IMG/VR virus record: IMGVR_UViG_2627853983_000003
Direction: 5' to 3' (one strand)
Source: a virus
Taxonomy: Duplodnaviria > Heunggongvirae > Uroviricota > Caudoviricetes
Length of the DNA stretch: 44,347 nt
Both the position numbers and the translations under genes were made by a program. Below are positions 822 to 19,217 of the stretch, in pieces. Under the pieces are notes generated by a model. That model did no database searches and was not told the origin of the DNA. It saw only the letters and a program-made list of their open reading frames with translations. Numbering within the stretch: position 1 is the first letter of the stretch; the number at the start of each line of letters is the position of its first letter.

Positions 822-1379
822 TTAAAACCGCATCAACCTTTCCACCAATTGTTCTTTACGGGCAACGATCCACCCATGTTGCTCCAGATAAAATTTAAAC
901 CGTTCCAGCGTGCATACCATCGCATCGGCGGGGACTTTTTCTGTGAACTCGACCTGACCGTGTTTATCGAAGTGGATCAGTAATGCGCATCCATTATTTG
1001 GGGCGGGGGAGTTTTGTGCTGCAGGAGGACGTTTGTGGAGTTCTTCTTCCATTGCGTTAAATTTTTCAATGTAAGCTTCTTTTAGTCTGGCTGCTTTTTT
1101 GCCAGTAAATCCCATTACGAGGAACATGAAGCCGTCTTTTGTGATCAGGTAGCATCGTGATTCACGTTCTGCGCCGTTGCCAATTTCGACAGTCTGAACA
1201 TCGGCCGAAAAGTTGGCTGATGTAAATTCGGGAGAGCAGTCGAGTGTGTCAATCTTAGCTAAAACGTGTTTATGTTGTTTATCGAAGTAGTCGGCAACAG
1301 CTTGAGAGGTGGTAACCAGGCGACCATCTTTGAAAAAGACTTTTGGTGACTCGTTAGAAAAAGTTATAGCTGTATTCAT
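822..1379 (-). CDS. Rha-family phage regulatory protein
   Basis: Seen: N-terminal region LVTTSQAVADYFDKQHKHVLAKIDTL...ITKDGFMFLVMGFTGKKAARLKEAYIEKFNAMEEEL has the Rha-domain pattern. ATG at 1379 (MNTAITF) is preceded by a GGAG Shine-Dalgarno; the ORF-track start at 1394 is a TTG. Confidence 0.55.
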   Translation of the reverse strand: MNTAITFSNESPKVFFKDGRLVTTSQAVADYFDKQHKHVLAKIDTLDCSPEFTSANFSADVQTVEIGNGAERESRCYLITKDGFMFLVMGFTGKKAARLKEAYIEKFNAMEEELHKRPPAAQNSPAPNNGCALLIHFDKHGQVEFTEKVPADAMVCTLERFKFYLEQHGWIVARKEQLVERLMRF

Positions 1380-1965
1380 ATGTGATGACTCCAATTAATT
1401 GGATGATCACCACCTCTGACGCCAATCAGGGAGGTGGTGAGACGTACAGGGTTGGCGTAACCGGTCATCACAAAACCCGGCGCGGATTTCTCCGCCCCTG
1501 CACGCCCCACCATAATGCGAATGTGGCAATGCTTAACGCAAAAAAAACCGCAAACGCGGCTATGCGTTGTGATGTTATCCGAGACGCCAATCCCGACAAC
1601 CGATTTTGCGGTTGTGTGAGGAATATAGCCCCGGAGAACAAAAACTGTCAACGGGCAAAAAAATTTCCGTTATCAGGAATGTATAAAATTAAAGCGATCG
1701 AGCAAAAAATCCTTTCTGCAAAACTAAAAAAGATTTCAATAAAATCAGGCAGTTAAAAACACGGAAAAACGGTATAAAAAAGCGCCTCAAATCCTGTTTT
1801 TTCTTTCAGATACAATGTCTTATTGCATTTTTTAAAACATGTCGGTCTGGTACATGGATATCGATACCACGGCTAAGTACAAATCTGGTGTTACTACCGT
1901 AAAAGACTCGGTACGACTGGATCCGTGGGTGTTTATGTTCTCCGCAGGATATCGTTTTTAATTTT

Positions 1966-2000: not shown

Positions 2001-2025
2001 TGGTCATCAAATGACCAGTTTTTTC
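2000..2025. terminator. Hairpin plus T-run overlapping the int stop codon (putative terminator)
   Basis: Seen: perfect 8-bp inverted repeat CTGGTCAT-caa-ATGACCAG followed by TTTTTT; the int stop codon lies inside the stem. Confidence 0.4.
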
Positions 2026-3137
2026 CATTCCTTACCGCGTGCGTCGTTGTAAATATCGGTCATTTTTTGATTCGAATGGCCCAGCAAAATTTTGGTATCA
2101 ACCCCCTGCTCTCTGAACAATCGCTCTGATAAAGATCTCTGCTCATGGAAAGAGGGTGGGGTGCCATTAGCACGCCAGTTGTAATCCACAGAATCCCGGG
2201 CTTTTTTAAATGCAACGGTTAATGTTGCTGGCTTAACCATCCCGCCGCGCTTAGCTGTCCCTTTCGCGTGATGGTGGTGCAATAGCCACGGACTAAGAAC
2301 GCAATCGCGGCAGGATGACACCACATCATCTAGGGTGAGATTTAATTTATCGCAACGCAGAGCCAGAGGGATGGCAATCCGGGTTCCTGTTTTTTGCTGT
2401 TCGACATGAAGATAACCATCCCGGATATCCGAAAATTGCATTTTGCAAATATCTGAAAGGCGCTGGCCTGTCATCAGTGCCAGCAGCATACCGCGCTGTA
2501 AAAAGTAACCATCCTTTTCCGCTGCGTTATAAATCATCATCCACTCATCAAAAGTCAGTCGCTGTCTTGATATCCGCACCTGCGGTTTTTTTGCCGATTC
2601 TGCAGGGTTAAAGCCTGGCGGGACATCGCCCGTTTGCTGAGCTTCCCGGAAAACATCGATCAGTACCTTCCTGAAAATTTGTCCCATTCTGTTATGTCCT
2701 CTGGCCTTGTACTCTTCCAGTACTGATACCACATCTTTTACGGTTATGGCATCTAACGGTCTGGTGCCAAAACGTTCATCAAATACCCTGAGAGGGGCCG
2801 CTTTCTGTTTCAGCGTGTTGAGTTTGATCTCGCCGTTTTCATATCTTTCCTGTTGAATTTTTCTGTAATTATTCAGAAAAATGGTAACGGTTGATGAACC
2901 GCCGGTATCACTAATAATTTTCTCCTGCAGACTGAGCATTTGTTCCATTTGCTGCCGGGCAAGACGGCTGTTCGCTTCTGCTGCAATAGTTTCTGCCAGT
3001 TTCTGGTCAATACTGCCGAGACCGTGATTTTTGCCTGTTATGGGATGCCTGTAACGCCAGTAAACTTTGTTATTTCTTTTGTCAAAATACGGAGATAATC
3101 CCGGAACATTGGTTTTATATTTTCGCGGGCGCGCCAT
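2007..3137 (-). CDS. int: Phage integrase, tyrosine recombinase (lambda Int family)
   Basis: Seen: 376 aa with lambda-Int-like layout and C-terminal catalytic region (DGYLHVEQQKTGTRIAIPLAL...PPSFHEQRSLSERL...LLGHSNQKMTDIYNDARGKEWKKLVI). Overlapped at its 5' end by a small excisionase-like gene. Confidence 0.9.
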   Translation of the reverse strand: MARPRKYKTNVPGLSPYFDKRNNKVYWRYRHPITGKNHGLGSIDQKLAETIAAEANSRLARQQMEQMLSLQEKIISDTGGSSTVTIFLNNYRKIQQERYENGEIKLNTLKQKAAPLRVFDERFGTRPLDAITVKDVVSVLEEYKARGHNRMGQIFRKVLIDVFREAQQTGDVPPGFNPAESAKKPQVRISRQRLTFDEWMMIYNAAEKDGYFLQRGMLLALMTGQRLSDICKMQFSDIRDGYLHVEQQKTGTRIAIPLALRCDKLNLTLDDVVSSCRDCVLSPWLLHHHHAKGTAKRGGMVKPATLTVAFKKARDSVDYNWRANGTPPSFHEQRSLSERLFREQGVDTKILLGHSNQKMTDIYNDARGKEWKKLVI

Positions 3138-3363
3138 CTTCCAGTATCCTCTTCAAAGCAGGGTGATCTGTGGCGATCACCTCCGGCTTGTTTACCATTC
3201 CGACAAAGCGAGCTTGCGGATCCACTCGCCAGCGTCTTCCAACTTTTTTGGGGAGAGGAAATATCATTCCGGCTTTAGCGTATTTACTTAACGTACTCGG
3301 AGTTGGGACCGGTTCACTGAATTCCTCTTTTGCCCACTCAGTGAGCAGAATAAGTCTTGCCAT
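3115..3363 (-). CDS. xis: Excisionase (Xis-like)
   Basis: Seen: 82-aa basic protein directly upstream of int and overlapping its start by 23 nt; motif EWAK...AGMIFPLPKKVGRRWRVDPQA is typical of excisionase/Xis winged-helix proteins. Confidence 0.7.
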   Translation of the reverse strand: MARLILLTEWAKEEFSEPVPTPSTLSKYAKAGMIFPLPKKVGRRWRVDPQARFVGMVNKPEVIATDHPALKRILEDGAPAKI

Positions 3364-3427
3364 GAGCGTCGTTCGCTAATCATGGTCGCCGCCACTATAG
3401 CTGGTGGGCAACGACCGGGGTTGAACA

Positions 3428-5899
3428 TTAAAAATCAGCCTGATTCGGGATCAGTTTTTGCCAGATAACTGAAACGTATTTTGCCTGGTAACGGGCGTCA
3501 TCAAGTGCATTATGGCGCTCACCTTCGAATGGAATAGCCGTTCTGGCATCGAAGTCTATGGCTTTCCCCAGCTCAACGATTGTGCGTACATCGCGATCGT
3601 TGTAGTAACGCCATGGGCAGGGGATCCCCTGCCGTTCGTATGAACGGCGCAAAATCGTGTTTTCGAAGTTGGCTCCATTTCCCCAGACCTGAACAAAAAA
3701 TTCACCGGAGTTTTCGTCGATAAATTCCCGCAATTGTAACAGTGCATCATCTAACGGGATTTCATCGGTCATAATGGCAGACTGCGCTTCACGTGATTGC
3801 TTCAGCCACCTTTTAATGACGTCACGATCAATGACTCCGCCAGCAGTTTCCAGATCGATAGTCTTACTAAATTCCGGTCCCATATCTCCGGTTTGCGGAT
3901 CGAAAAATATTGCATCTATTGAGATAATCGGGGCATCAGGATTTTTTCCCATGGTTTCAAGGTCAATCATCAGATGGTGCCACAACCTGCTGGTGGATGT
4001 GCTTTTACGATGACTGTTCACCTTAATTAAGGGATTTGCTGTCTCGCCTATTTCATTATTGTCATTGGCATGTTGATCGCCTTCGGTGCACTCCTTGTTC
4101 GGGAGTCCGGCATTTTCTATTTCCTCTGGATCTTTTTCCCGGGCTTCATCCTGGCTTTCTTCGTTGAATGTCTCCTGGTAGGTTGCGTCACCCATCACTG
4201 CGCCACAATCAGGGCAGTTACCACCACCAGTCTGATTGCATGCGGTACAAACTTTTTCCTCTTCCTGTTGCACGACTGGTTCAGGTTGTTTCGTTTCTGG
4301 CTCGTTTTGTAACGCATTTTGGCTGTTTTGTTCCGCTTTTTGGTCGTACTGTTCCGTTTCTGACTGGTTCTGGTGCACAGAATCGCGGGTTTCAATCCCC
4401 TTCACCCATTTCGGATCATTCGGGTCGCTAATCCCTTCAACAAATTCACCACGTGATGCAGCGAGCAACTTATTAGCGTCAGGCTGGCTGATACTGGCTG
4501 CCTGCATAATTTTGTTTACTTCGTCAGCGGTAACTTTTACCAGGTCTGGTTGTGCGGTCGTGTCAGATGCATCAGTATTTTGTTGTGAACCTGTGTATGT
4601 GCCGTTTTTGCGGGCAAAATATTCTTCTTTCGTGATTTCAGTTGCCCCGGCAGCCAGCGCCTTATCCAGACCAGAAAGTTTGTTTGCGCGACCGTATTTT
4701 TCGCCATCCTTGTCGGTGAAGAGGAAGTAGAACGGCCCCTCACGCTCTACAGATGGTTCGACTTCCACTTTGCATTCGGTTTTTTCGTTGTCCGGAATTG
4801 CCGTTTCCACTGCATCAGTTTCTGGTACTGGCGACGAGAGAGTATCAGTTGCGCTCTGATTTCTTCCTTCATCTTCAAACACGCCCTTTGTAGTCAGGTA
4901 TTCAGTAATGTATTTGTTCAGTGCCACAGGGTCTTTGTGAATGTCGATCGGACGTTCACGGACAAGGCCAAAAATAGTCTGGCGGTCGTAGCGAAGGGCA
5001 TCAGGCTGTTTGCGCATTGATGCCGAGATACGCTTCCAGTCTTCGCGGTCGTTGTCGATAACTTCATTTTTTGCCCAGCGATGGATGCTGCCGTCAATGT
5101 TTCCGGCATCCACATCACCAGGCCAGAGAGCGTAGGCCAGTTCGTCATCCAGTGTTTTCCATGTCTGCTTGTATTCGCGATGAATGGCAGCAATGACCGG
5201 GCTGATTTTTCCTGTTGAATTTTCAGTGTACTGTTGATTGGCTCTGGCGCGGGCGAGATCAACAACAGACGTGTATTTTCCGGTTTCCTTGCGTTCACCT
5301 TCACGACGTTTTTTCCAGATGCGCATCTCTGCCTGAATTTCGGGCCATTTGGCACCAGGCTTACATTTATGCTTAACCCACCCGATGGCATGCAGCTTAA
5401 GCTCCGGATACATGGCGTTAACTTCTGGCATTTTCATCAACGCTTCAACGATATGTCCGTCGAATGTTGCCATGTCTTCCTGCAACAATTCCTGTGCGCT
5501 AATAACCATATCAACGGTGATGTTTTCACATGTGTCGAACTTAACCATGACAGCGTTCTGTACTTCAGGGGCCAGCTTGTCAAAAGTGACGTTCATCGGA
5601 TCGGATTCAGTCTCAACCGGGACAAAGGAAGCAGACTCCTCATCCCAGCGGTTTTCCTGCATATATTCAGCATCCCAGGAATCGAGGGCAGGGCGGGGTA
5701 TACCGGGTTTATCCTCGCAGACAAGAAATTTATAAGCGCAGTCCTGAGCAGCCGGATAATGTTCCAGGAATTGCCAGTGAAATTTTGCGCGGGCGCGACG
5801 TTCATCACCGGCTTCAATGGCAGTGGCTACAGCGACGGCACCTTCTTCCTTTATTGCCTGTTCGTCCGGAATGGCGGCGCAAATAAAGACTTTACTCAT
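3428..5899 (-). CDS. Large phage exonuclease with C-terminal DnaQ-like (DEDDh) 3'-5' exonuclease domain; intact counterpart of the K-12 ydfE fragment
   Basis: Seen: 823 aa. C-terminal ~180 aa carry DEDDh motifs (MIDLETMG; WGNGANFENTILRR; HNALDDARYQAKY). The central region is acidic and Q-rich with a Cys4 ribbon (CTACNQTGGGNCPDCG). Sits immediately before xis/int, where lambdoid phages encode recombination nucleases. Confidence 0.7.
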   Translation of the reverse strand: MSKVFICAAIPDEQAIKEEGAVAVATAIEAGDERRARAKFHWQFLEHYPAAQDCAYKFLVCEDKPGIPRPALDSWDAEYMQENRWDEESASFVPVETESDPMNVTFDKLAPEVQNAVMVKFDTCENITVDMVISAQELLQEDMATFDGHIVEALMKMPEVNAMYPELKLHAIGWVKHKCKPGAKWPEIQAEMRIWKKRREGERKETGKYTSVVDLARARANQQYTENSTGKISPVIAAIHREYKQTWKTLDDELAYALWPGDVDAGNIDGSIHRWAKNEVIDNDREDWKRISASMRKQPDALRYDRQTIFGLVRERPIDIHKDPVALNKYITEYLTTKGVFEDEGRNQSATDTLSSPVPETDAVETAIPDNEKTECKVEVEPSVEREGPFYFLFTDKDGEKYGRANKLSGLDKALAAGATEITKEEYFARKNGTYTGSQQNTDASDTTAQPDLVKVTADEVNKIMQAASISQPDANKLLAASRGEFVEGISDPNDPKWVKGIETRDSVHQNQSETEQYDQKAEQNSQNALQNEPETKQPEPVVQQEEEKVCTACNQTGGGNCPDCGAVMGDATYQETFNEESQDEAREKDPEEIENAGLPNKECTEGDQHANDNNEIGETANPLIKVNSHRKSTSTSRLWHHLMIDLETMGKNPDAPIISIDAIFFDPQTGDMGPEFSKTIDLETAGGVIDRDVIKRWLKQSREAQSAIMTDEIPLDDALLQLREFIDENSGEFFVQVWGNGANFENTILRRSYERQGIPCPWRYYNDRDVRTIVELGKAIDFDARTAIPFEGERHNALDDARYQAKYVSVIWQKLIPNQADF

Positions 5900-5991: not shown

Positions 5992-6183
5992 TTAAAGACC
6001 TGCCGGGATTTCGTTATTATCCTGGTGAATAACTTTATCGACCGGGTAACAGTTACCGGGAATTTTCTGTTCGGTTGCTGCAGTCACACACTCCTGCATT
6101 GTCCTGTGAACACTGACTGCAATATCAACTGGCTCTCCGGAAACAAGAAAAACTGTCAGAACAAGTGCAAATGCTGTATTCAT
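5992..6183 (-). CDS. ydfD: YdfD-like small protein (63 aa) with N-terminal hydrophobic segment
   Basis: Seen: MNTAFALVLTVFLVSGEPVDIAVSVHRTMQECVTAATEQKIPGNCYPVDKVIHQDNNEIPAGL; AGGA Shine-Dalgarno before the ATG at 6183, which overlaps the dicB stop (ATGA coupling). Established: same size and position as K-12 Qin ydfD, the last gene of the dicB operon. Identity is from memory, no alignment run. Confidence 0.6.
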   Translation of the reverse strand: MNTAFALVLTVFLVSGEPVDIAVSVHRTMQECVTAATEQKIPGNCYPVDKVIHQDNNEIPAGL

Positions 6184-6368
6184 TGCCAGCATCCTTTTTG
6201 TATCGGACGTAAACGGGCCAGCATTGAAAGAATGCATATTTTATTTAATAGCTCCCGTTCGTGTTTTCTCTTGTTAATGGCATCTTCAGTAAATACAGGG
6301 TTACTGATATTGACACCAATTTCAAAACAACCTTCAGACGTATTAACGTTTGGTAATAACGTTTCCAT
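6180..6368 (-). CDS. dicB: DicB-like cell-division inhibitor (62 aa)
   Basis: Seen: METLLPNVNTSEGCFEIGVNISNPVFTEDAINKRKHERELLNKICILSMLARLRPIQKGCWQ; GAGGA Shine-Dalgarno 9 nt upstream of the ATG at 6368. Established: DicB is 62 aa and follows dicF in the Qin dicB operon. Identity is from memory. Confidence 0.7.
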   Translation of the reverse strand: METLLPNVNTSEGCFEIGVNISNPVFTEDAINKRKHERELLNKICILSMLARLRPIQKGCWQ

Positions 6369-6537
6369 TATCGCGTCCTCAACAATGAATTTTGTGATGC
6401 GGTGCCTGGTGCCTCCAGGTGACGTTAACCAGTTAACAATTAACGCCGGATACAGAGAATCCACCCATAACACTGTTTTTGGTTTTAACTGTTCCGCGTG
6501 CGCTCAGCCGCATTCACCACATCACAAAATTCACTTT

Positions 6538-6595
6538 AAAAAGGGCGGCAGAGCAGTCACGGAGTAAAACTGATACCGCCAAACGTCACCAGAAA
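6538..6595 (-). ncRNA. dicF: DicF small RNA (ftsZ-targeting, Hfq-dependent), processed from the dicB-operon transcript
   Basis: Seen: minus strand reads TTTCTGGTGACGTTTGGCGGTATCAGTTTTACTCCGTGACTGCTCTGCCGCCCTTTTT, ending in a GC stem plus U-run. This matches my recollection of E. coli DicF and sits in the ~460-bp ORF-free, hairpin-rich gap between ydfC and dicB. Ends approximate because DicF is cut from a precursor. Confidence 0.7.
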
Positions 6596-6933
6596 ATTGA
6601 TAACAGAGGGCGTTGCAGCGGAGTTGTCACTTAAGCGTATGGTCAACCTGACAACCCGGTGTCCTCAACGGAGGAAGGAATAACCCCGCCATACTTACCG
6701 CCGCGCCATTTCGCGGAGTGCCACAACCGGAAGCGCACGGTCGAACTAAATTTAACGACACCGTACAGAGAGACCAATTTCGCCGTGCGCTTTCGCTTTA
6801 TGCCCTGACTTTTCAGGGACATATCCTTTCAGTAAACTGTCAGTGCCGGATGTTCACCCGTGTCCGGCGCACGCACTCCACCTGACCCGTGGAGAACTCC
6901 TTAATTACCAACCTTAGCTTCGTTGGTTAGCTA

Positions 6934-7152
6934 TTAACGCGGGTATGTAACCATTCTGGCAATGCTTAATGCCGCTGCTTTTTCCAGCCTGGTGATATCC
7001 TGCTCCAGAGCGGACAGATTTTCAGCCTGCTTAGTCCTGGCTTCATTGGCCCATTTCAGATCCTGCGCTGCATTAATTTTCTGGCGCATCCACTCATAAA
7101 GTTCATCATCGGTATAGTCTGGCGCGATGATGACGGGTTCTCGTTTCTGCAT
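6934..7152 (-). CDS. ydfC: YdfC-like protein (72 aa), dicB operon
   Basis: Seen: 72-aa ORF MQKREPVIIAPDYTDDELYEWMRQKINAAQDLKWANEARTKQAENLSALEQDITRLEKAAALSIARMVTYPR, third gene of the leftward operon. Size and order match K-12 ydfC (from memory). Confidence 0.55.
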   Translation of the reverse strand: MQKREPVIIAPDYTDDELYEWMRQKINAAQDLKWANEARTKQAENLSALEQDITRLEKAAALSIARMVTYPR

Positions 7153-7181
7153 ACTGATTCCTCGCGGTGCTGCTTCGCTTA

Positions 7182-7310
7182 TCAGCCGTTAGATTTTGCC
7201 GAGCTGGAAAGCGCCTGTTTAAACTCACTGAAGCTGAGAGCTTCTTCGCCTTCGGCAAGGCCTTCGAAGTATTCTTCGTAAGCCTTTTCCATGATTGTGT
7301 CGAAATCCAT
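7182..7310 (-). CDS. ydfB: YdfB-like acidic mini-protein (42 aa), dicB operon
   Basis: Seen: hand-translated ORF MDFDTIMEKAYEEYFEGLAEGEEALSFSEFKQALSSSAKSNG, below the 60-aa cutoff of the ORF track. Its ATG lies 1 nt after the upstream gene's stop. Size and position match K-12 ydfB (from memory). Confidence 0.5.
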   Translation of the reverse strand: MDFDTIMEKAYEEYFEGLAEGEEALSFSEFKQALSSSAKSNG

Positions 7311-7311
7311 A

Positions 7312-7467
7312 TCACTCACCTGAGTTTCTTTCCAGCCAGCGACGGGCACCATTTTCGGTTTTAAACGTTTTGCTTTTGGTATACGTCATTGCGGTGAACG
7401 TGCCGTCCTGGTTGGGGAACACGCCACATACCAGAGATTCGCTGTTGCCAAGATCGATAGTATCCAT
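7312..7467 (-). CDS. ydfA: YdfA-like protein (51 aa), first gene of the dicB operon
   Basis: Seen: MDTIDLGNSESLVCGVFPNQDGTFTAMTYTKSKTFKTENGARRWLERNSGE with a GAGGT Shine-Dalgarno 4 nt before the ATG at 7467; the ORF-track start at 7548 is a non-ATG upstream extension. Size and position match K-12 ydfA (from memory). Confidence 0.5.
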   Translation of the reverse strand: MDTIDLGNSESLVCGVFPNQDGTFTAMTYTKSKTFKTENGARRWLERNSGE

Positions 7468-7650
7468 GCTGACCTCATTTCCCCTTAACGCCGGGGGAGC
7501 GGAACAAAAACCTGCTGCATAGTTATTAAAGTTGAACCCTGCCGTCATGTTCTTACGCCTCGGGCTGGCTACTTACCCCCTGACCACTGCTTGGTAACTC
7601 GAAGTATTGCCCGGCGTTCTGTGGGGCGGGGTGGGTTGGTATGTTGTTAA

Positions 7651-7668
7651 GGTAACAAGAGTTACCTT
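7651..7668. promoter_or_regulatory. Operator-like palindrome AGGTAACaagaGTTACCT in the leftward promoter region
   Basis: Seen: 7+7 inverted repeat with 4-bp spacer, same GTAAC-N4-GTTAC core as two sites between the repressor and cro genes. A TTGACT -35-like hexamer on the minus strand lies just upstream. Inference: repressor binding site controlling the dicB operon. Confidence 0.45.
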
Positions 7669-7704
7669 TCGAGTCAATACAATGTTGCAAAAGGTACATT
7701 TGAG

Positions 7705-7737
7705 GGCATAAAAAACCCGCAATGAATGCGGGTTCTG
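7705..7737 (-). terminator. Intrinsic terminator downstream of the repressor gene
   Basis: Seen: minus strand reads AACCCGCATTCATTGCGGGTT followed by TTTTTTAT, immediately 3' of the repressor stop at 7740. Confidence 0.5.
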
Positions 7738-7739
7738 AC

Positions 7740-8414
7740 TCAGTCTAAGTATTGATGTATTTGTGAAACTTTACCTTTAATGGTGTAACCACCATTCAGT
7801 TCGATGGGTTTGTAAAGCGGATTCAGTGACAACAGATAGATGTTTGGTCCGTCAATCGCAACTTTTTTTAGTGTTACGTTTGGCGTTCCTTCCAATTGGA
7901 TTAAGATTATTTTTCCCACCAGTTCTCTAATGTTACTTGAGCATGGTGTGATCAGCACGGTAGATCCGTCGGGGATGGTTGGGAGGCCGTTAGAGTTTGT
8001 CATCGCATCTCCCTCAACATGCAATAAAAAAGAGTTTTCAGCGGTTTTTGTCATGACATCAACCCAGTTCTTAATACCAGGAATCTTGGTTACTGGACAA
8101 CTCATATCCCAATAACCAGCCTGTTCCCACGTTAAAACGGGCAACCGGGCGATGTTGTCACTAATGTAAGGGTACTGATTCAGACGCAGATCATCGGTTT
8201 TATCGTGACCGTCCTTTCCATAAAGAATCCATTCAGGAGATTTGGAAAGCAATTTTGACAGTAGATACAAATTCTCACCGTCAGGTTTTGAAGAGCCATT
8301 TTCCCATTTTGTTACGGATACACGAGATATGCCGATTGCTTTCGCAACCTGCTGTTGGGTTAATCCAACGTCTTTTCGACGATTCCGAATACGTTCGCTG
8401 ATAGTGTTTTTCAT
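7740..8414 (-). CDS. cI-like phage repressor (N-terminal HTH, C-terminal LexA/S24-type autopeptidase domain)
   Basis: Seen: HTH segment GLTQQQVAKAIGISRVSVTKWENG and a C-terminal region with S24-like features. Start set at ATG 8414 (MKNTISERIRNRRKD); alternatives are ATG 8456 or the TTG at 8513 used by the ORF track. Divergent from a cro-like gene. Confidence 0.8.
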   Translation of the reverse strand: MKNTISERIRNRRKDVGLTQQQVAKAIGISRVSVTKWENGSSKPDGENLYLLSKLLSKSPEWILYGKDGHDKTDDLRLNQYPYISDNIARLPVLTWEQAGYWDMSCPVTKIPGIKNWVDVMTKTAENSFLLHVEGDAMTNSNGLPTIPDGSTVLITPCSSNIRELVGKIILIQLEGTPNVTLKKVAIDGPNIYLLSLNPLYKPIELNGGYTIKGKVSQIHQYLD

Positions 8415-8476
8415 GTAACCAATGTTACTACCAAGTGATGTTGCTATGGTTGACATTGTTATGTAACTATTGTTAC
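8415..8476. promoter_or_regulatory. Right-operator region: two GTAAC-N4-GTTAC palindromes flanking a TTGACA -35 hexamer
   Basis: Seen: GTAACcaatGTTAC at 8415-8428 and GTAACtattGTTAC at 8463-8476; TTGACA at 8450-8455 with a weak -10 about 18 bp downstream overlapping the second palindrome, pointing toward cro at 8506. Inference: divergent repressor/cro promoters under operator control. Confidence 0.5.
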
Positions 8477-8505
8477 CCTTCTGCTCGAAATAACAGGAGA
8501 GTTTT

Positions 8506-8721
8506 ATGTTCAAAGATGATGTTCTGCGCTATTTCAAAAAAAAGCGACTAGTAGCTGAGGCTCTTGGAATTTCACATGTGGCTGTTGTGCGGTGGAAAGC
8601 AGTTATTCCCAAACTTCGCGCAATGGAACTGGATGAAATTACTAACGGTGAATTGAAATACAACCCAGAACTTTACAAGAAGCAGGATAGCACCTCGAAC
8701 GAAGGAAAGAATGATTCATGA
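8506..8721 (+). CDS. Cro/DicC-like small DNA-binding regulator
   Basis: Seen: 71 aa, divergent from the repressor, AGGAGA Shine-Dalgarno upstream; LRYFKKKRLVAEALGISHVAVVRWK resembles DicC/YdaS-type Cro proteins (from memory). Confidence 0.7.
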   Translation: MFKDDVLRYFKKKRLVAEALGISHVAVVRWKAVIPKLRAMELDEITNGELKYNPELYKKQDSTSNEGKNDS

Positions 8722-12267: not shown

Positions 12268-12954
12268 ATGACCCCAATAAAAATATTTATGACTATTGCT
12301 GATTTCAAACGGCCTAAATTGGAGCTCCCAAACGGGGCAAACAAACTACTACTGCACTCTTGCTGTGCTCCATGTTCCGGTGAAGTGATGGAGGCGCTTC
12401 AGGCCTCGGGAATCGACTACACCATCTTTTTCTACAACCCGAACATTCATCCTCAGAAAGAGTATTTAATTCGTAAGGATGAAAATATTCGCTTTGCTGA
12501 ACAACACGGCGTGCCGTTTATCGATGCTGATTACGACACCGACAACTGGTTTGAACGTGCCAAAGGAATGGAATGGGAGCCTGAGAGGGGGATCCGTTGT
12601 ACCATGTGTTTTGACATGCGTTTTGAGCGGACAGCGTTGTACGCTGCTGAAAATGGTTTCAGTGTGATCAGCAGTTCACTGGGCATTTCACGCTGGAAAA
12701 ATATGCAGCAGGTTAACGAGTGTGGGCGGCGAGCTGTTGCGCATTATCCGGGTATGGTGTACTGGGATTATAACTGGCGCAAGCAGGGCGGCTCGTCCCG
12801 TATGATTGAAATCAGCAAGCGCGAAAAATTCTATCAGCAGGAATATTGTGGCTGTGTGTATTCTCTGCGCGATACCAATCTACACCGCAAATCTCAGGGA
12901 CGCCCTCTTATCAAAATTGGCCAACTCCACTACGGAAAAGAAGAGAAGGAGTGA
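12268..12954 (+). CDS. queH: QueH-like protein (DUF208 family; putative epoxyqueuosine reductase), moron
   Basis: Seen: N-terminal [11 protein letters not shown] motif that I recall as the hallmark of QueH/DUF208 Fe-S enzymes, plus further conserved Cys (CTMC, CGC). Preceded by a 150-bp ORF-free region with TTGACA-like hexamers, suggesting its own promoter. Assignment is motif-based only. Confidence 0.55.
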
Positions 12955-13079
12955 TTTTATGGATCACCTTTCTGATTGATTTCATATTGGCGAGGTGACG
13001 TGAGTTAAGTAGAATGGCTGCGGGTGCTTGAGGCTATCTGTCTCAGGCATGAACACTGAAAGGCAGATAGAGAAAAGCC

Positions 13080-13150
13080 CCAGTTAACATTTCGCGTCCT
13101 GCAAGACGCTTAACATTAATCTGAGGCCCAATCTATGTCTCACAAATGTA
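13080..13150 (-). ncRNA. Putative Sok-like antisense RNA of the hok/mok locus
   Basis: Inference from locus architecture: hok loci carry a short antisense RNA across the mok translation start. Seen: candidate minus-strand promoter (TTGCCT-17-TAACCT) around 13155-13185 firing across the mok start. Boundaries are approximate. Confidence 0.3.
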
Positions 13151-13191
13151 GGTTAGCCTCTTACGTGCCGAAAGGCAAGGGGAAGCAGGCT

Positions 13192-13347
13192 ATGAAGCAG
13201 CAAAAGGCGATGTTAATCGCCCTGATCGTCATCTGTTTAACCGTCATAGTGACGGCACTGGTAACGAGGAAAGACCTCTGCGAGGTACGACTCCGAACCG
13301 GCCAGACGGAGGTCGCTGTCTTCACAGCTTACGAACCTGAGGAGTAA
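13192..13347 (+). CDS. hok: Hok-family type I toxin (51 aa); the in-frame upstream extension from ATG 13135 is the mok reading frame
   Basis: Seen: MKQQKAMLIALIVICLTVIVTALVTRKDLCEVRLRTGQTEVAVFTAYEPEE, a Hok/Gef-family sequence as I recall it; the 70-codon mok-like ORF (13135-13347) contains it in the same frame. Confidence 0.8.
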   Translation: MKQQKAMLIALIVICLTVIVTALVTRKDLCEVRLRTGQTEVAVFTAYEPEE

Positions 13348-17716: not shown

Positions 17717-17792
17717 CGGCCCTTTAGCTCAGTGGTGAGAGCGAGCGACTCATAATCGCCAGGTCGCTGGTTCAAATCCAGCAAGGGCCACC
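17717..17792 (+). tRNA. tRNA with CAU anticodon (Met, or Ile2 if lysidine-modified)
   Basis: Seen: hand-folded cloverleaf with 7-bp acceptor stem GGCCCTT/AAGGGCC, D-arm GCTC-AGTGGTGA-GAGC, anticodon loop CTCATAA (anticodon CAT), T-arm GCTGG-TTCAAAT-CCAGC, encoded CCA. Confidence 0.85.
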
Positions 17793-17893
17793 ATCACAAA
17801 CCGCCATTAGCTTATCAGGAAGAGCAGACGACACGATAACAGGGTTGTTGGTGCGGGGGCGGGTCCCCGATGGCGGTCCATTATCGGTATTCA

Positions 17894-17970
17894 GCGTTGT
17901 TAGCTCAGCCGGACAGAGCAATTGCCTTCTAAGCAATCGGTCACTGGTTCGAATCCAGTACAGCGCGCCA
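17894..17970 (+). tRNA. tRNA-Arg (anticodon UCU)
   Basis: Seen: hand-folded cloverleaf with acceptor GCGTTGT/ACAGCGC (one G-U pair), anticodon arm ATTGC-CTTCTAA-GCAAT (anticodon TCT), T-arm ACTGG-TTCGAAT-CCAGT, encoded CCA. Confidence 0.85.
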
Positions 17971-18434: not shown

Positions 18435-18825
18435 ATACATATCTGGATTATCACCGGTTACGGTAAAAAGTGATTGCTTACTGTTTTTGTGAATGGCATT
18501 GCTGCAGCCGGATAATGTCAGTGCTGGCTGACGGTGTGCTGGTGGCGGGTGTGGTGGTTGTTGCTTTCCCGTTGCTGAAAAAGAAAACGCCAGACTGTTA
18601 GCCGGGTATCAGTTAGCGGGAGAAATTTTTAAATACTTCACAATTCAGGCGGTTGATTGTTGTCTGGTTTGCGGGGAGTTTGTTAAAAGAAACTGGCATG
18701 GTGAATCCCCCTGTGCGGAGGGGCAATCAGCGAGTAGGTATATGGGATAATCGCGGATTCAGGTGCTGGTACTGAATTCACCGGGAGGCACCCGGCACCA
18801 TGCAATGGCACATAGCGCCACTCTC

Positions 18826-18854
18826 CAGCCCCTCTCCGGAGGGGCTGTTTATAT
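18826..18854 (+). terminator. Intrinsic terminator inside the cargo island
   Basis: Seen: CAGCCCCTC-tccg-GAGGGGCTG 9-bp stem followed by TTTATATTGATTTT. Confidence 0.5.
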
Positions 18855-18881
18855 TGATTTTGTCAGATGTGAGTAAACTCC

Positions 18882-19217
18882 TTATGGACTTTGTTGTTTT
18901 AGTCCATAAGGACATATTTGCAGAGTGCAACGGTTATTAAAGCATTCATTCAATACGTTATCTGTATTTGTAGGGCATTCCTGGCTGTTTTTGATTAAAT
19001 TCCAGAATGTTTTATTGAATGGTACTACGTTGTAAATGGTTACAGGTAGCACTTTGTTATTGAGCATGATGCCTGTGTGAGTCAGTGTAAATATACTTTC
19101 AGGAGGTAAGAAAGCATCCGATTGATACCAGATTATTAATTTTATTTTACTCCATATGACTGAAAAAGATATTCCGCATGATGGCTGGATAACTGTATCA
19201 ATCACAATCCACTTCAT
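18882..19217 (-). CDS. Hypothetical Cys-containing protein (111 aa), reverse-oriented low-GC moron
   Basis: Seen: ATG at 19217 preceded by AGGAAA Shine-Dalgarno; AT-rich upstream region (19220-19460) with promoter-like hexamers. Oriented against late transcription; about 33% GC versus about 50% for the prophage backbone. No family recognised. Confidence 0.4.

Follow-up and report, generated by a model that had tools for sequence, protein, structure and literature searches.

The Qin prophage's dicBF operon in Escherichia coli K-12 consists of ydfA, ydfB, ydfC, the small RNA (sRNA) gene dicF, dicB and ydfD, which lie downstream of the gene for a repressor of 135 amino acids (aa), DicA, and run away from cro/dicC towards the exonuclease and integrase genes. 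The K-12 DicB protein inhibits division in a MinC-dependent manner (PMC6832061, PMC10448788), and processing of the K-12 dicBF RNA by RNase III as well as by RNase E has been reported (PMC10448788). Induction of the operon promoter, dicBp, through flipping between DicA and DicC in K-12 is spontaneous or stress-driven and is independent of RecA and of the antirepressor Rem. Repressors of the lambda cI, P22 C2 and LexA kind share another architecture, with a helix-turn-helix (HTH) domain and a C-terminal S24 fold that carries a scissile Ala-Gly, a nucleophile Ser (lambda S149, LexA S119) and a catalytic Lys (lambda K192, LexA K156). Replacement of this Ser by Ala (LexA S119A and the lambda cI equivalent) abolishes self-cleavage. 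The repressors that are relieved by antirepressors (Gifsy GfoR/GftR, Qin DicA with Rem, P1 C1 with Ant and the C4 RNA, Gifsy-1 with IsrK and AnrP) are without an S24 domain altogether; the Gifsy antirepressors act on GfoR, and Ant acts on P1 C1. Here we describe the dicBF locus at positions 5992–7548 of a stretch of 44,347 nucleotides (nt) of viral DNA (Caudoviricetes; IMG/VR record IMGVR_UViG_2627853983_000003), the whole of which is referred to below as the window. By comparison with K-12, the locus is an ordinary orthologue of the dicBF operon in a Qin-like lambdoid E. coli prophage, with nothing new in the operon as such; the adjacent immunity repressor has the S24 fold with Ala in place of the nucleophile Ser, and RecA-stimulated self-cleavage of this protein is therefore probably not to be expected.

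The repressor matches both Pfam HTH_3 (4e-17) and Peptidase_S24 (1.3e-16), aligns with lambda repressor 3bdn across residues 11–217 (207 residues) and also with the P22 C2 N-terminal domain, while its HTH is 54% identical to that of K-12 DicA across 70 aa. At 224–238 aa it departs from the short DicA type (about 135 aa, an HTH with a short helical tail, no S24 domain and no Ala-Gly), in agreement with an earlier reading of the letters alone (hereafter the sequence-only reading), which had proposed an S24-type cI-like repressor instead of a short DicA. Forms of 224 aa and 238 aa both occur in the protein cluster of the repressor; with the start at 8456 (the PGAP choice) the coding sequence takes in one operator as well as the likely promoter region, and the ATG at 8414 leaves both operators in a 91-nt intergenic region. 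The scissile Ala-Gly is kept (EQAGYW, against VQAGMF in lambda cI), as is the catalytic Lys (TLKKV, against TFKKL), whereas in a HMMER alignment the nucleophile Ser is absent (VEGDAMT, against VEGNSMT), an Ala codon, GCG, standing at this position. By these alignments the protein has the architecture of the self-cleaving S24 family but fails the key defining feature of that family. It resembles the antirepressor-relieved repressors in being predicted not to cleave itself, and differs from them in keeping the S24 fold.

Among 45 homologues found, most have G[DE]SM at the Ser position; Ala was present in the repressor's own cluster (98% identity, 499 members), in a cluster at 89% identity and in a 70%-identical Salmonella cluster, and Ser was kept in clusters at 88% and 66% identity. 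In the repressor's own cluster Ala stands in every one of the 15 members listed, as does Ser in every one of the 15 listed for the 88%-identical sister cluster. A 57-nt probe centred on the codon found the segment in 683 E. coli genomes, 681 of which were identical to the Ala allele, while an engineered probe with TCG (Ser) was identical to none of these 683. These genomes and the cluster members rule out that the Ala arose through an error of sequencing or a mutation specific to one strain, and on the same counts the Ala allele is a fixed feature of the lineage. Of 106 full-length representatives from the wider family, Ser stands at the nucleophile position in 90, Thr in 6 and Ala in 5, and the catalytic Lys is present in 97; with 16 of the 106 lacking Ser, the alignments mark Ser-less S24-fold repressors as a recurrent minority, to which the present protein belongs. 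A literature search on naturally Ser-less prophage repressors of the S24 type returned nothing relevant.

The Ser-bearing sister repressor (88% aa identity) is found at 3405–5793 of a Logan contig from SRR25418695, together with the same three operators and ydfA, and the counterpart of the operator at 7652–7665 is identical in sequence and likewise positioned downstream of the sister repressor gene. In the leftward operon of this contig, ydfB and ydfC are replaced by other genes and the spacer sequence is 77% identical; no DicF was detected in the contig at the Rfam gathering score. The existence of DicF under a cleavable S24 repressor is accordingly not claimed.

Control of the operon by the adjacent repressor is indicated by the operators (Table 1). 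The palindrome GTAAC-N4-GTTAC occurs in exactly three copies in the 44 kb, and only at two promoter regions: one copy sits between the repressor terminator and ydfA, overlapping the predicted early-left promoter, and two lie in the repressor/cro region. With at most one mismatch there are five matches where 0.64 are expected, and none of 100 shuffles reached five. At both early promoters the first three bases of the -10 element are the last three bases of the operator, and the layout of K-12 dicBp is the same, TTGACC-17-TAATCT, the spacer holding a palindrome of its own; the K-12 operator is TTAGY-N4-RCTAA. Since the operon shares its palindrome with the repressor/cro switch, control by the adjacent HTH and S24-fold repressor, as the sequence-only reading had supposed, is a well supported inference from the common operators and the dicBp layout. 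The divergent repressor and cro genes, with palindromic operators at both early promoters, also agree with switches of the lambda cI and P22 C2 type; unlike the lambda type, no N-like gene comes first in the leftward operon. In a generic consensus scan for promoters and terminators between 5850 and 8750, the two early promoters (PL-like and PR-like) were not listed, and the repressor terminator was missed as well; the PR-like promoter was passed over because its -10 is weak, and the terminator probably because part of its T run can pair into the stem.

Homology with K-12 begins at 7505, 38 nt before the ydfA start codon, and homology with dicBF loci of the type in phage Tritos begins at 7631–7643, which is the predicted transcription start of the operon. 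Because homology starts downstream of the promoter, the transcribed operon reads as the common part, and the immunity module, including promoter and operator, as exchanged as a unit. Across genomes, the immunity region joined to the operon is of at least four different kinds, some of which have a RelE/ParE toxin-antitoxin pair between repressor and operon.

The six elements claimed for 5992–7548 are all present on the minus strand with the lengths stated (open reading frames, Rfam and PGAP annotation), in the order ydfA-ydfB-ydfC-dicF-dicB-ydfD directly downstream of the immunity repressor gene, as in Qin, and the early-left (PL-like) position of the operon is borne out by Rfam, Pfam, annotation and the K-12 comparison. 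The right boundary stands less well: the operon is there, but at 7548 begins an extended reading of ydfA with 78 aa, an extension not common to K-12 because homology with K-12 begins only at 7505. The pairwise alignment that had been proposed as a check gave 95.6% nt identity to the K-12 Qin locus across 1610 nt, with identical order and lengths and the same promoter/operator layout. No frameshift or internal stop was found in any operon gene, and dicB and ydfD, in which frameshifts would have told against the sequence-only reading, are both open on the letters given. The operon stretch is 100% identical to annotated RefSeq genomes, where PGAP names each gene, and PHROG phage-protein families match all five small operon proteins. 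The DicB protein covers Pfam PF05358 over profile positions 1–62 of 62 (123 bits, cut-off 27); the eight of its 62 residues that differ from K-12 are mostly C-terminal, and its MinC-dependent activity is putative here, carried over from the K-12 result. The K-12 YdfD protein bears the RefSeq name 'lysis protein YdfD'.

The DicF sequence matches Rfam RF00039 over the full model (1–52 of 52, at 6594..6543) with 76.7 bits (gathering score 48; E 2.5e-15), and the 52-nt core is identical at 52 of 52 positions to K-12 and to phage PhiR42_1, so that the match to K-12 DicF given by the sequence-only reading holds. By this identity, and by the K-12 experiments (PMC5069750), DicF would be expected to repress ftsZ and other targets here in an Hfq-dependent manner. 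DicF lies 339 nt past the ydfC stop and 174 nt ahead of the dicB start, within an untranslated spacer whose 34 differences from K-12 all fall outside DicF. The spacer folds with a minimum free energy (MFE) of -214.6 kcal/mol (z = -4.92; none of 100 shuffles folds as well), which agrees with the hairpin-rich region described earlier, although the length is 565 nt and not about 460 bp. Directly 3' of the DicF terminator, a 150-nt hairpin ends 5 nt ahead of the dicB Shine-Dalgarno sequence and, by analogy with the K-12 work (PMC10448788), is likely an RNase III substrate. The region 6336–6545 (minus strand) has a sub-threshold match to STnc100 (38.7 bits, E 2e-6), and a full STnc100 copy lies in the late region at 18667–18856 (plus strand, 132 bits); TGGTGAAT and TCACCnGGAGGCACCnGGCACC are common to this copy and the hairpin 3' of DicF, which on these shared segments is a distant relative of STnc100. 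A permissive Rfam search of the operon for other RNAs, such as antitermination elements, returned only DicF, the sub-threshold STnc100-like element and a chance Trp-leader match. The STnc100-like element alone, without the remaining operon, is conserved early-left in Rac-like and Stx phages.

The operon is already known: RefSeq annotates each of its genes, most E. coli genomes have it, and it has been discussed for several prophages and a functional phage. In a search of 5426 complete E. coli genomes with a 1851-nt query, 4770 had at least part of the operon and 2137 covered at least 80% of the query; the exact junction of repressor and ydfA was present in 702, and the Ala-allele repressor in about 12.6–13%. 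Balasubramanian et al. (2016) found neither DicB nor DicF among about 2000 phage genomes (PMC5069750), and Ragunathan et al. (2023) described the functional phage mEp460_evo81 with dicB, dicF, dicAC and rem (PMC10448788). In the phage collection, complete early-left operons with 95–97% identity are carried by the isolated, functional temperate phages Tritos (in which DicF is annotated), PhiR42_1, mEp460_ev081 and vB_EcoS-689R5, and likewise by HannyBb. DicF was detected by Rfam in Tritos and PhiR42_1, where, in contrast to the present locus, the repressors are of the short DicA type (135–139 aa). The rarity that the sequence-only reading implied for the arrangement thus does not hold.

The prophage around the operon was described as retaining replication, lysis and morphogenesis genes, and this is so within the limits of the window: the 44 coding sequences carried over from a 99.8%-identical annotated prophage are all open, from integrase to tail genes (integrase, excisionase, exonuclease, repressor/cro, replication, Q, lysis, terminase, capsid, portal and tail), the window ending inside gpJ. 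Qin, by comparison, is truncated, whereas the exonuclease, xis and int genes here are intact within the window and rem is absent. Between positions 1836 and 44342 the window matches, at 99.83% identity, an ompW-integrated prophage of strain 4/1-1, and the right arm of that prophage has a lom gene split by ISEc12 and a tail-fibre region with remnants. Positions 1–1835 are not ompW flank but come from the right-hand end of a prophage of this type (SAM methyltransferase, a DUF4376 remnant, Rha and 'ash'), followed by a 126-nt 3' fragment of ompW and then the integrase gene; in strain 4/1-1 the same genes likewise end the right side of the prophage. From this arrangement of positions 1–2006, the window holds an attP-like junction, meaning either that prophages stand in tandem at ompW, the case in strain EC15, or that the form is circular.

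We consider it highly probable that the locus is an early-left dicBF orthologue under operator control, with derepression by a route other than SOS on account of the Ser-less repressor. In a lysogen, the adjacent repressor would bind GTAAC-N4-GTTAC at the copy overlapping the operon promoter -10 and at the two in the divergent repressor/cro region, and loss of repression would give a single polycistronic RNA. RNase E and RNase III would then cut DicF from the 565-nt spacer, its hairpin and U5 tail serving as a putative intrinsic terminator (from the K-12 literature, and here from sequence identity), and read-through transcripts would carry dicB and ydfD. As in K-12, DicF would pair with ftsZ and other mRNAs, and DicB would block the division ring via MinC and also impair ManYZ. 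Derepression would most likely come about through a stochastic or stress-driven flip between repressor and Cro, as with DicA/DicC, or through an antirepressor.

The sequence-only reading had expected the operon to be SOS-inducible, with DNA damage leading, through RecA-stimulated self-cleavage of a working autopeptidase of the lambda cI type, to expression of dicBF and the prophage. The HTH and Peptidase_S24 fold, the Ala-Gly in its lambda-like context, the retained Lys and the intact prophage within the window all fit such a switch, and it may hold for the Ser-bearing sister lineage, which shares the operators and the downstream ydfA. For the present lineage, with Ala at the Ser149 position in 681 of the 683 genomes and in each cluster member that was inspected, with equivalent substitutions in LexA and lambda cI known to abolish cleavage and with no phage of this immunity type deposited among 50,697 records (no repressor in this collection is more than 43% identical), we regard it as very improbable. 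The lack of a LexA box and of a Rem homologue in the window tells in the same direction. Several points nevertheless tell against the reading favoured here. The absence from the phage collection is weak negative evidence, and the predicted non-cleavage is carried over from LexA S119A and lambda cI to this repressor. Conservation of the Ala-Gly site and the Lys would be unexpected had cleavage long been irrelevant, and may still allow a related Ser-bearing repressor to cleave the protein in trans. The intact genes and the 99.8% identity between strains suggest recent phage spread and hence some working induction route. As regards operator control, the predicted early-left promoter has a weak -10 (3/6) and is unlisted in the consensus scan, and a single OL-type operator was found, whereas lambdoid phages usually have two or three.

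If the repressor is indeed non-cleavable, it could be inactivated by an antirepressor, and the candidate is a Rha-family protein encoded at 822–1651 behind a strong promoter and directly downstream of IsrK-like and C4-like RNAs, in a module that also ends the right side of this prophage in strain 4/1-1. The module is a candidate immI/antirepressor-like one and resembles P1 immI and Gifsy-1 isrK-anrP, an IsrK/C4-led gene being a feature that this prophage type has in common with Gifsy and P1. The Rha protein also matches PHROG families annotated 'anti-repressor', although its best PHROG matches are 'transcriptional regulator'. Precedents are the control of the antirepressor-like AnrP by IsrK in Gifsy-1 (PMC4825925) and the relief of K-12 DicA by Rem (PMC10448788). 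However, the Rha protein has no similarity to Rem; a search for a LexA box (CTGT-N8-ACAG), as would drive an SOS-controlled antirepressor, found none at the Rha promoter or elsewhere in the 44-kb window, and K-12 Rem searched against the window with tblastn gave nothing, a 90-aa open reading frame after hokD likewise being without Rem similarity. Inactivation by the Rha protein is on balance unlikely. Somewhat less so, though still doubtful, is that the prophage is locked by a naturally occurring ind- allele and is moving towards domestication, with the operon expressed at a low or stochastic level for the benefit of the host, as in cryptic Qin; that this benefit would lie in phage exclusion through DicB and ManYZ and in metabolic control by DicF is put forward just as tentatively. 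Fixation of the Ala allele in the lineage, the missing deposits of this immunity type, the RecA-independent induction of dicBp in K-12 and the interrupted lom and tail-fibre remnants of strain 4/1-1 are in keeping with a locked prophage, but the 44 open genes and near-identity between strains are not, and the attP-like junction implies recent integrase activity.

Table 1. Features of the dicBF locus and of the surrounding prophage, with positions in the window.
Feature	Position	Strand	Details
Candidate Phage_pRha gene	1379..822	-	185 aa; directly downstream of IsrK and C4 RNAs
C4-like antisense RNA	1517..1430	-	76 bits
IsrK-like RNA	1615..1541	-	72 bits
'ash family protein' ORF (open reading frame)	1651..1376	-	PGAP; overlies both RNAs; may be no real gene
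Near-consensus promoter	1651..1620	-	TTGACA-17-TATATT; heads IsrK/C4/Rha module
Downstream co-directional genes	2007..5899	-	823-aa exonuclease 3428-5899 (phrog_2082), excisionase 3115-3363, integrase 2007-3137; PGAP; open
ydfD	6183..5992	-	63 aa, DUF1482; Pfam 7.8e-25; 59/63 identical to K-12 YdfD; 4-nt overlap with dicB
dicB	6368..6180	-	62 aa, division inhibitor; Pfam DicB 4e-36; 54/62 identical to K-12; PGAP names DicB
Long hairpin, DicF to dicB ribosome-binding site	6385..6534	-	20-bp closing stem GUGAAUUUUGUGAUGUGGUG / CACCGCAUCACAAAAUUCAU; in MFE and centroid structures
DicF sRNA	6538..6595	-	53-nt body 6595..6543; terminator hairpin GGCGG.../...CCGCC and U5 tail 6542..6538
Untranslated ydfC-dicB spacer	6369..6933	-	565 nt, structured; DicF source
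ydfC	7152..6934	-	72 aa; 69/72 identical to K-12; phrog_1744
ydfB	7310..7182	-	42 aa; 42/42 identical to K-12 YdfB; same accession WP_000344964.1
ydfA	7467..7312	-	51 aa, DUF1391; Pfam 2.9e-27; 49/51 identical to K-12; PGAP call; phrog_751
Predicted early-left promoter, dicBp/PL equivalent	7649..7677	-	TTGACT-17-TACCTT; read by eye
Operator, OL-like	7652..7665		GTAACTCTTGTTAC (minus-strand reading); overlaps spacer and -10 of early-left promoter; exact match
Putative intrinsic terminator of repressor gene	7708..7734	-	AACCCGCA, loop TTCAT, TGCGGGTT, then T run; read by eye
Repressor	7740..8414	-	224 aa from ATG 8414; PGAP 238 aa from 8456; HTH and C-terminal S24 (LexA/lambda cI) fold
Ala codon GCG at catalytic-Ser position	8004..8006	-	HMMER alignment to lambda cI
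Operator-like palindrome, OR3-like	8415..8428		GTAACCAATGTTAC; adjoins repressor start codon; exact match
Predicted PR-like promoter	8450..8479	+	TTGACA-18-TACCCT; read by eye
Operator-like palindrome	8463..8476		GTAACTATTGTTAC; overlaps -10 of rightward (cro) promoter; exact match
Cro-like regulator, DicC counterpart	8506..8721	+	71 aa; Pfam P22_Cro 2.9e-16; 39% identical to K-12 DicC

Elsewhere in the prophage, a sok antisense RNA (120.5 bits) and the hokD toxin gene occupy 13022–13347 in the nin-like region, as in Qin, and a pair of tRNA genes (for Ile and Arg according to PGAP) is located at 17718–17970 between a DNA methyltransferase gene and the lysis region. Cargo genes include IraM (18882–19217, minus strand) and the epoxyqueuosine reductase QueH (12289–12954). 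Within the gene for an 861-aa 'portal protein', BLAST matches to the 99.8%-identical twin prophage that are offset by 162 nt (91% and 89% identity) indicate a 162-nt unit repeated in tandem, in three to four copies, at 31329–31922.

The finding is a modest lead, a natural repressor with the S24 fold that is predicted to be non-cleavable; the operon itself adds nothing new. That a widespread lambdoid lineage, in about 13% of complete E. coli genomes, has a cI-like repressor that is a pseudo-peptidase, with DicF, DicB and the lytic genes uncoupled from RecA-mediated cleavage and switched on by another route, is in our judgement an evenly balanced proposition. Such routes would include a Rha-type antirepressor under IsrK/C4 control, cleavage in trans by a Ser-bearing repressor, or a stochastic or stress-driven flip. 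An annotation as 'S24/LexA family' is insufficient to predict SOS inducibility, given the 16 of 106 family representatives without Ser, and the sister lineage, which is 88% identical, bears Ser and shares the operators, is a natural matched control. A non-cleavable repressor, if true, bears on the question, raised in K-12, of the natural trigger of dicBF; and if the Ala allele blocks cleavage, about one in eight E. coli genomes would carry an apparently intact prophage that answers to a signal other than RecA-mediated cleavage for the expression of DicF, DicB and the lytic genes.

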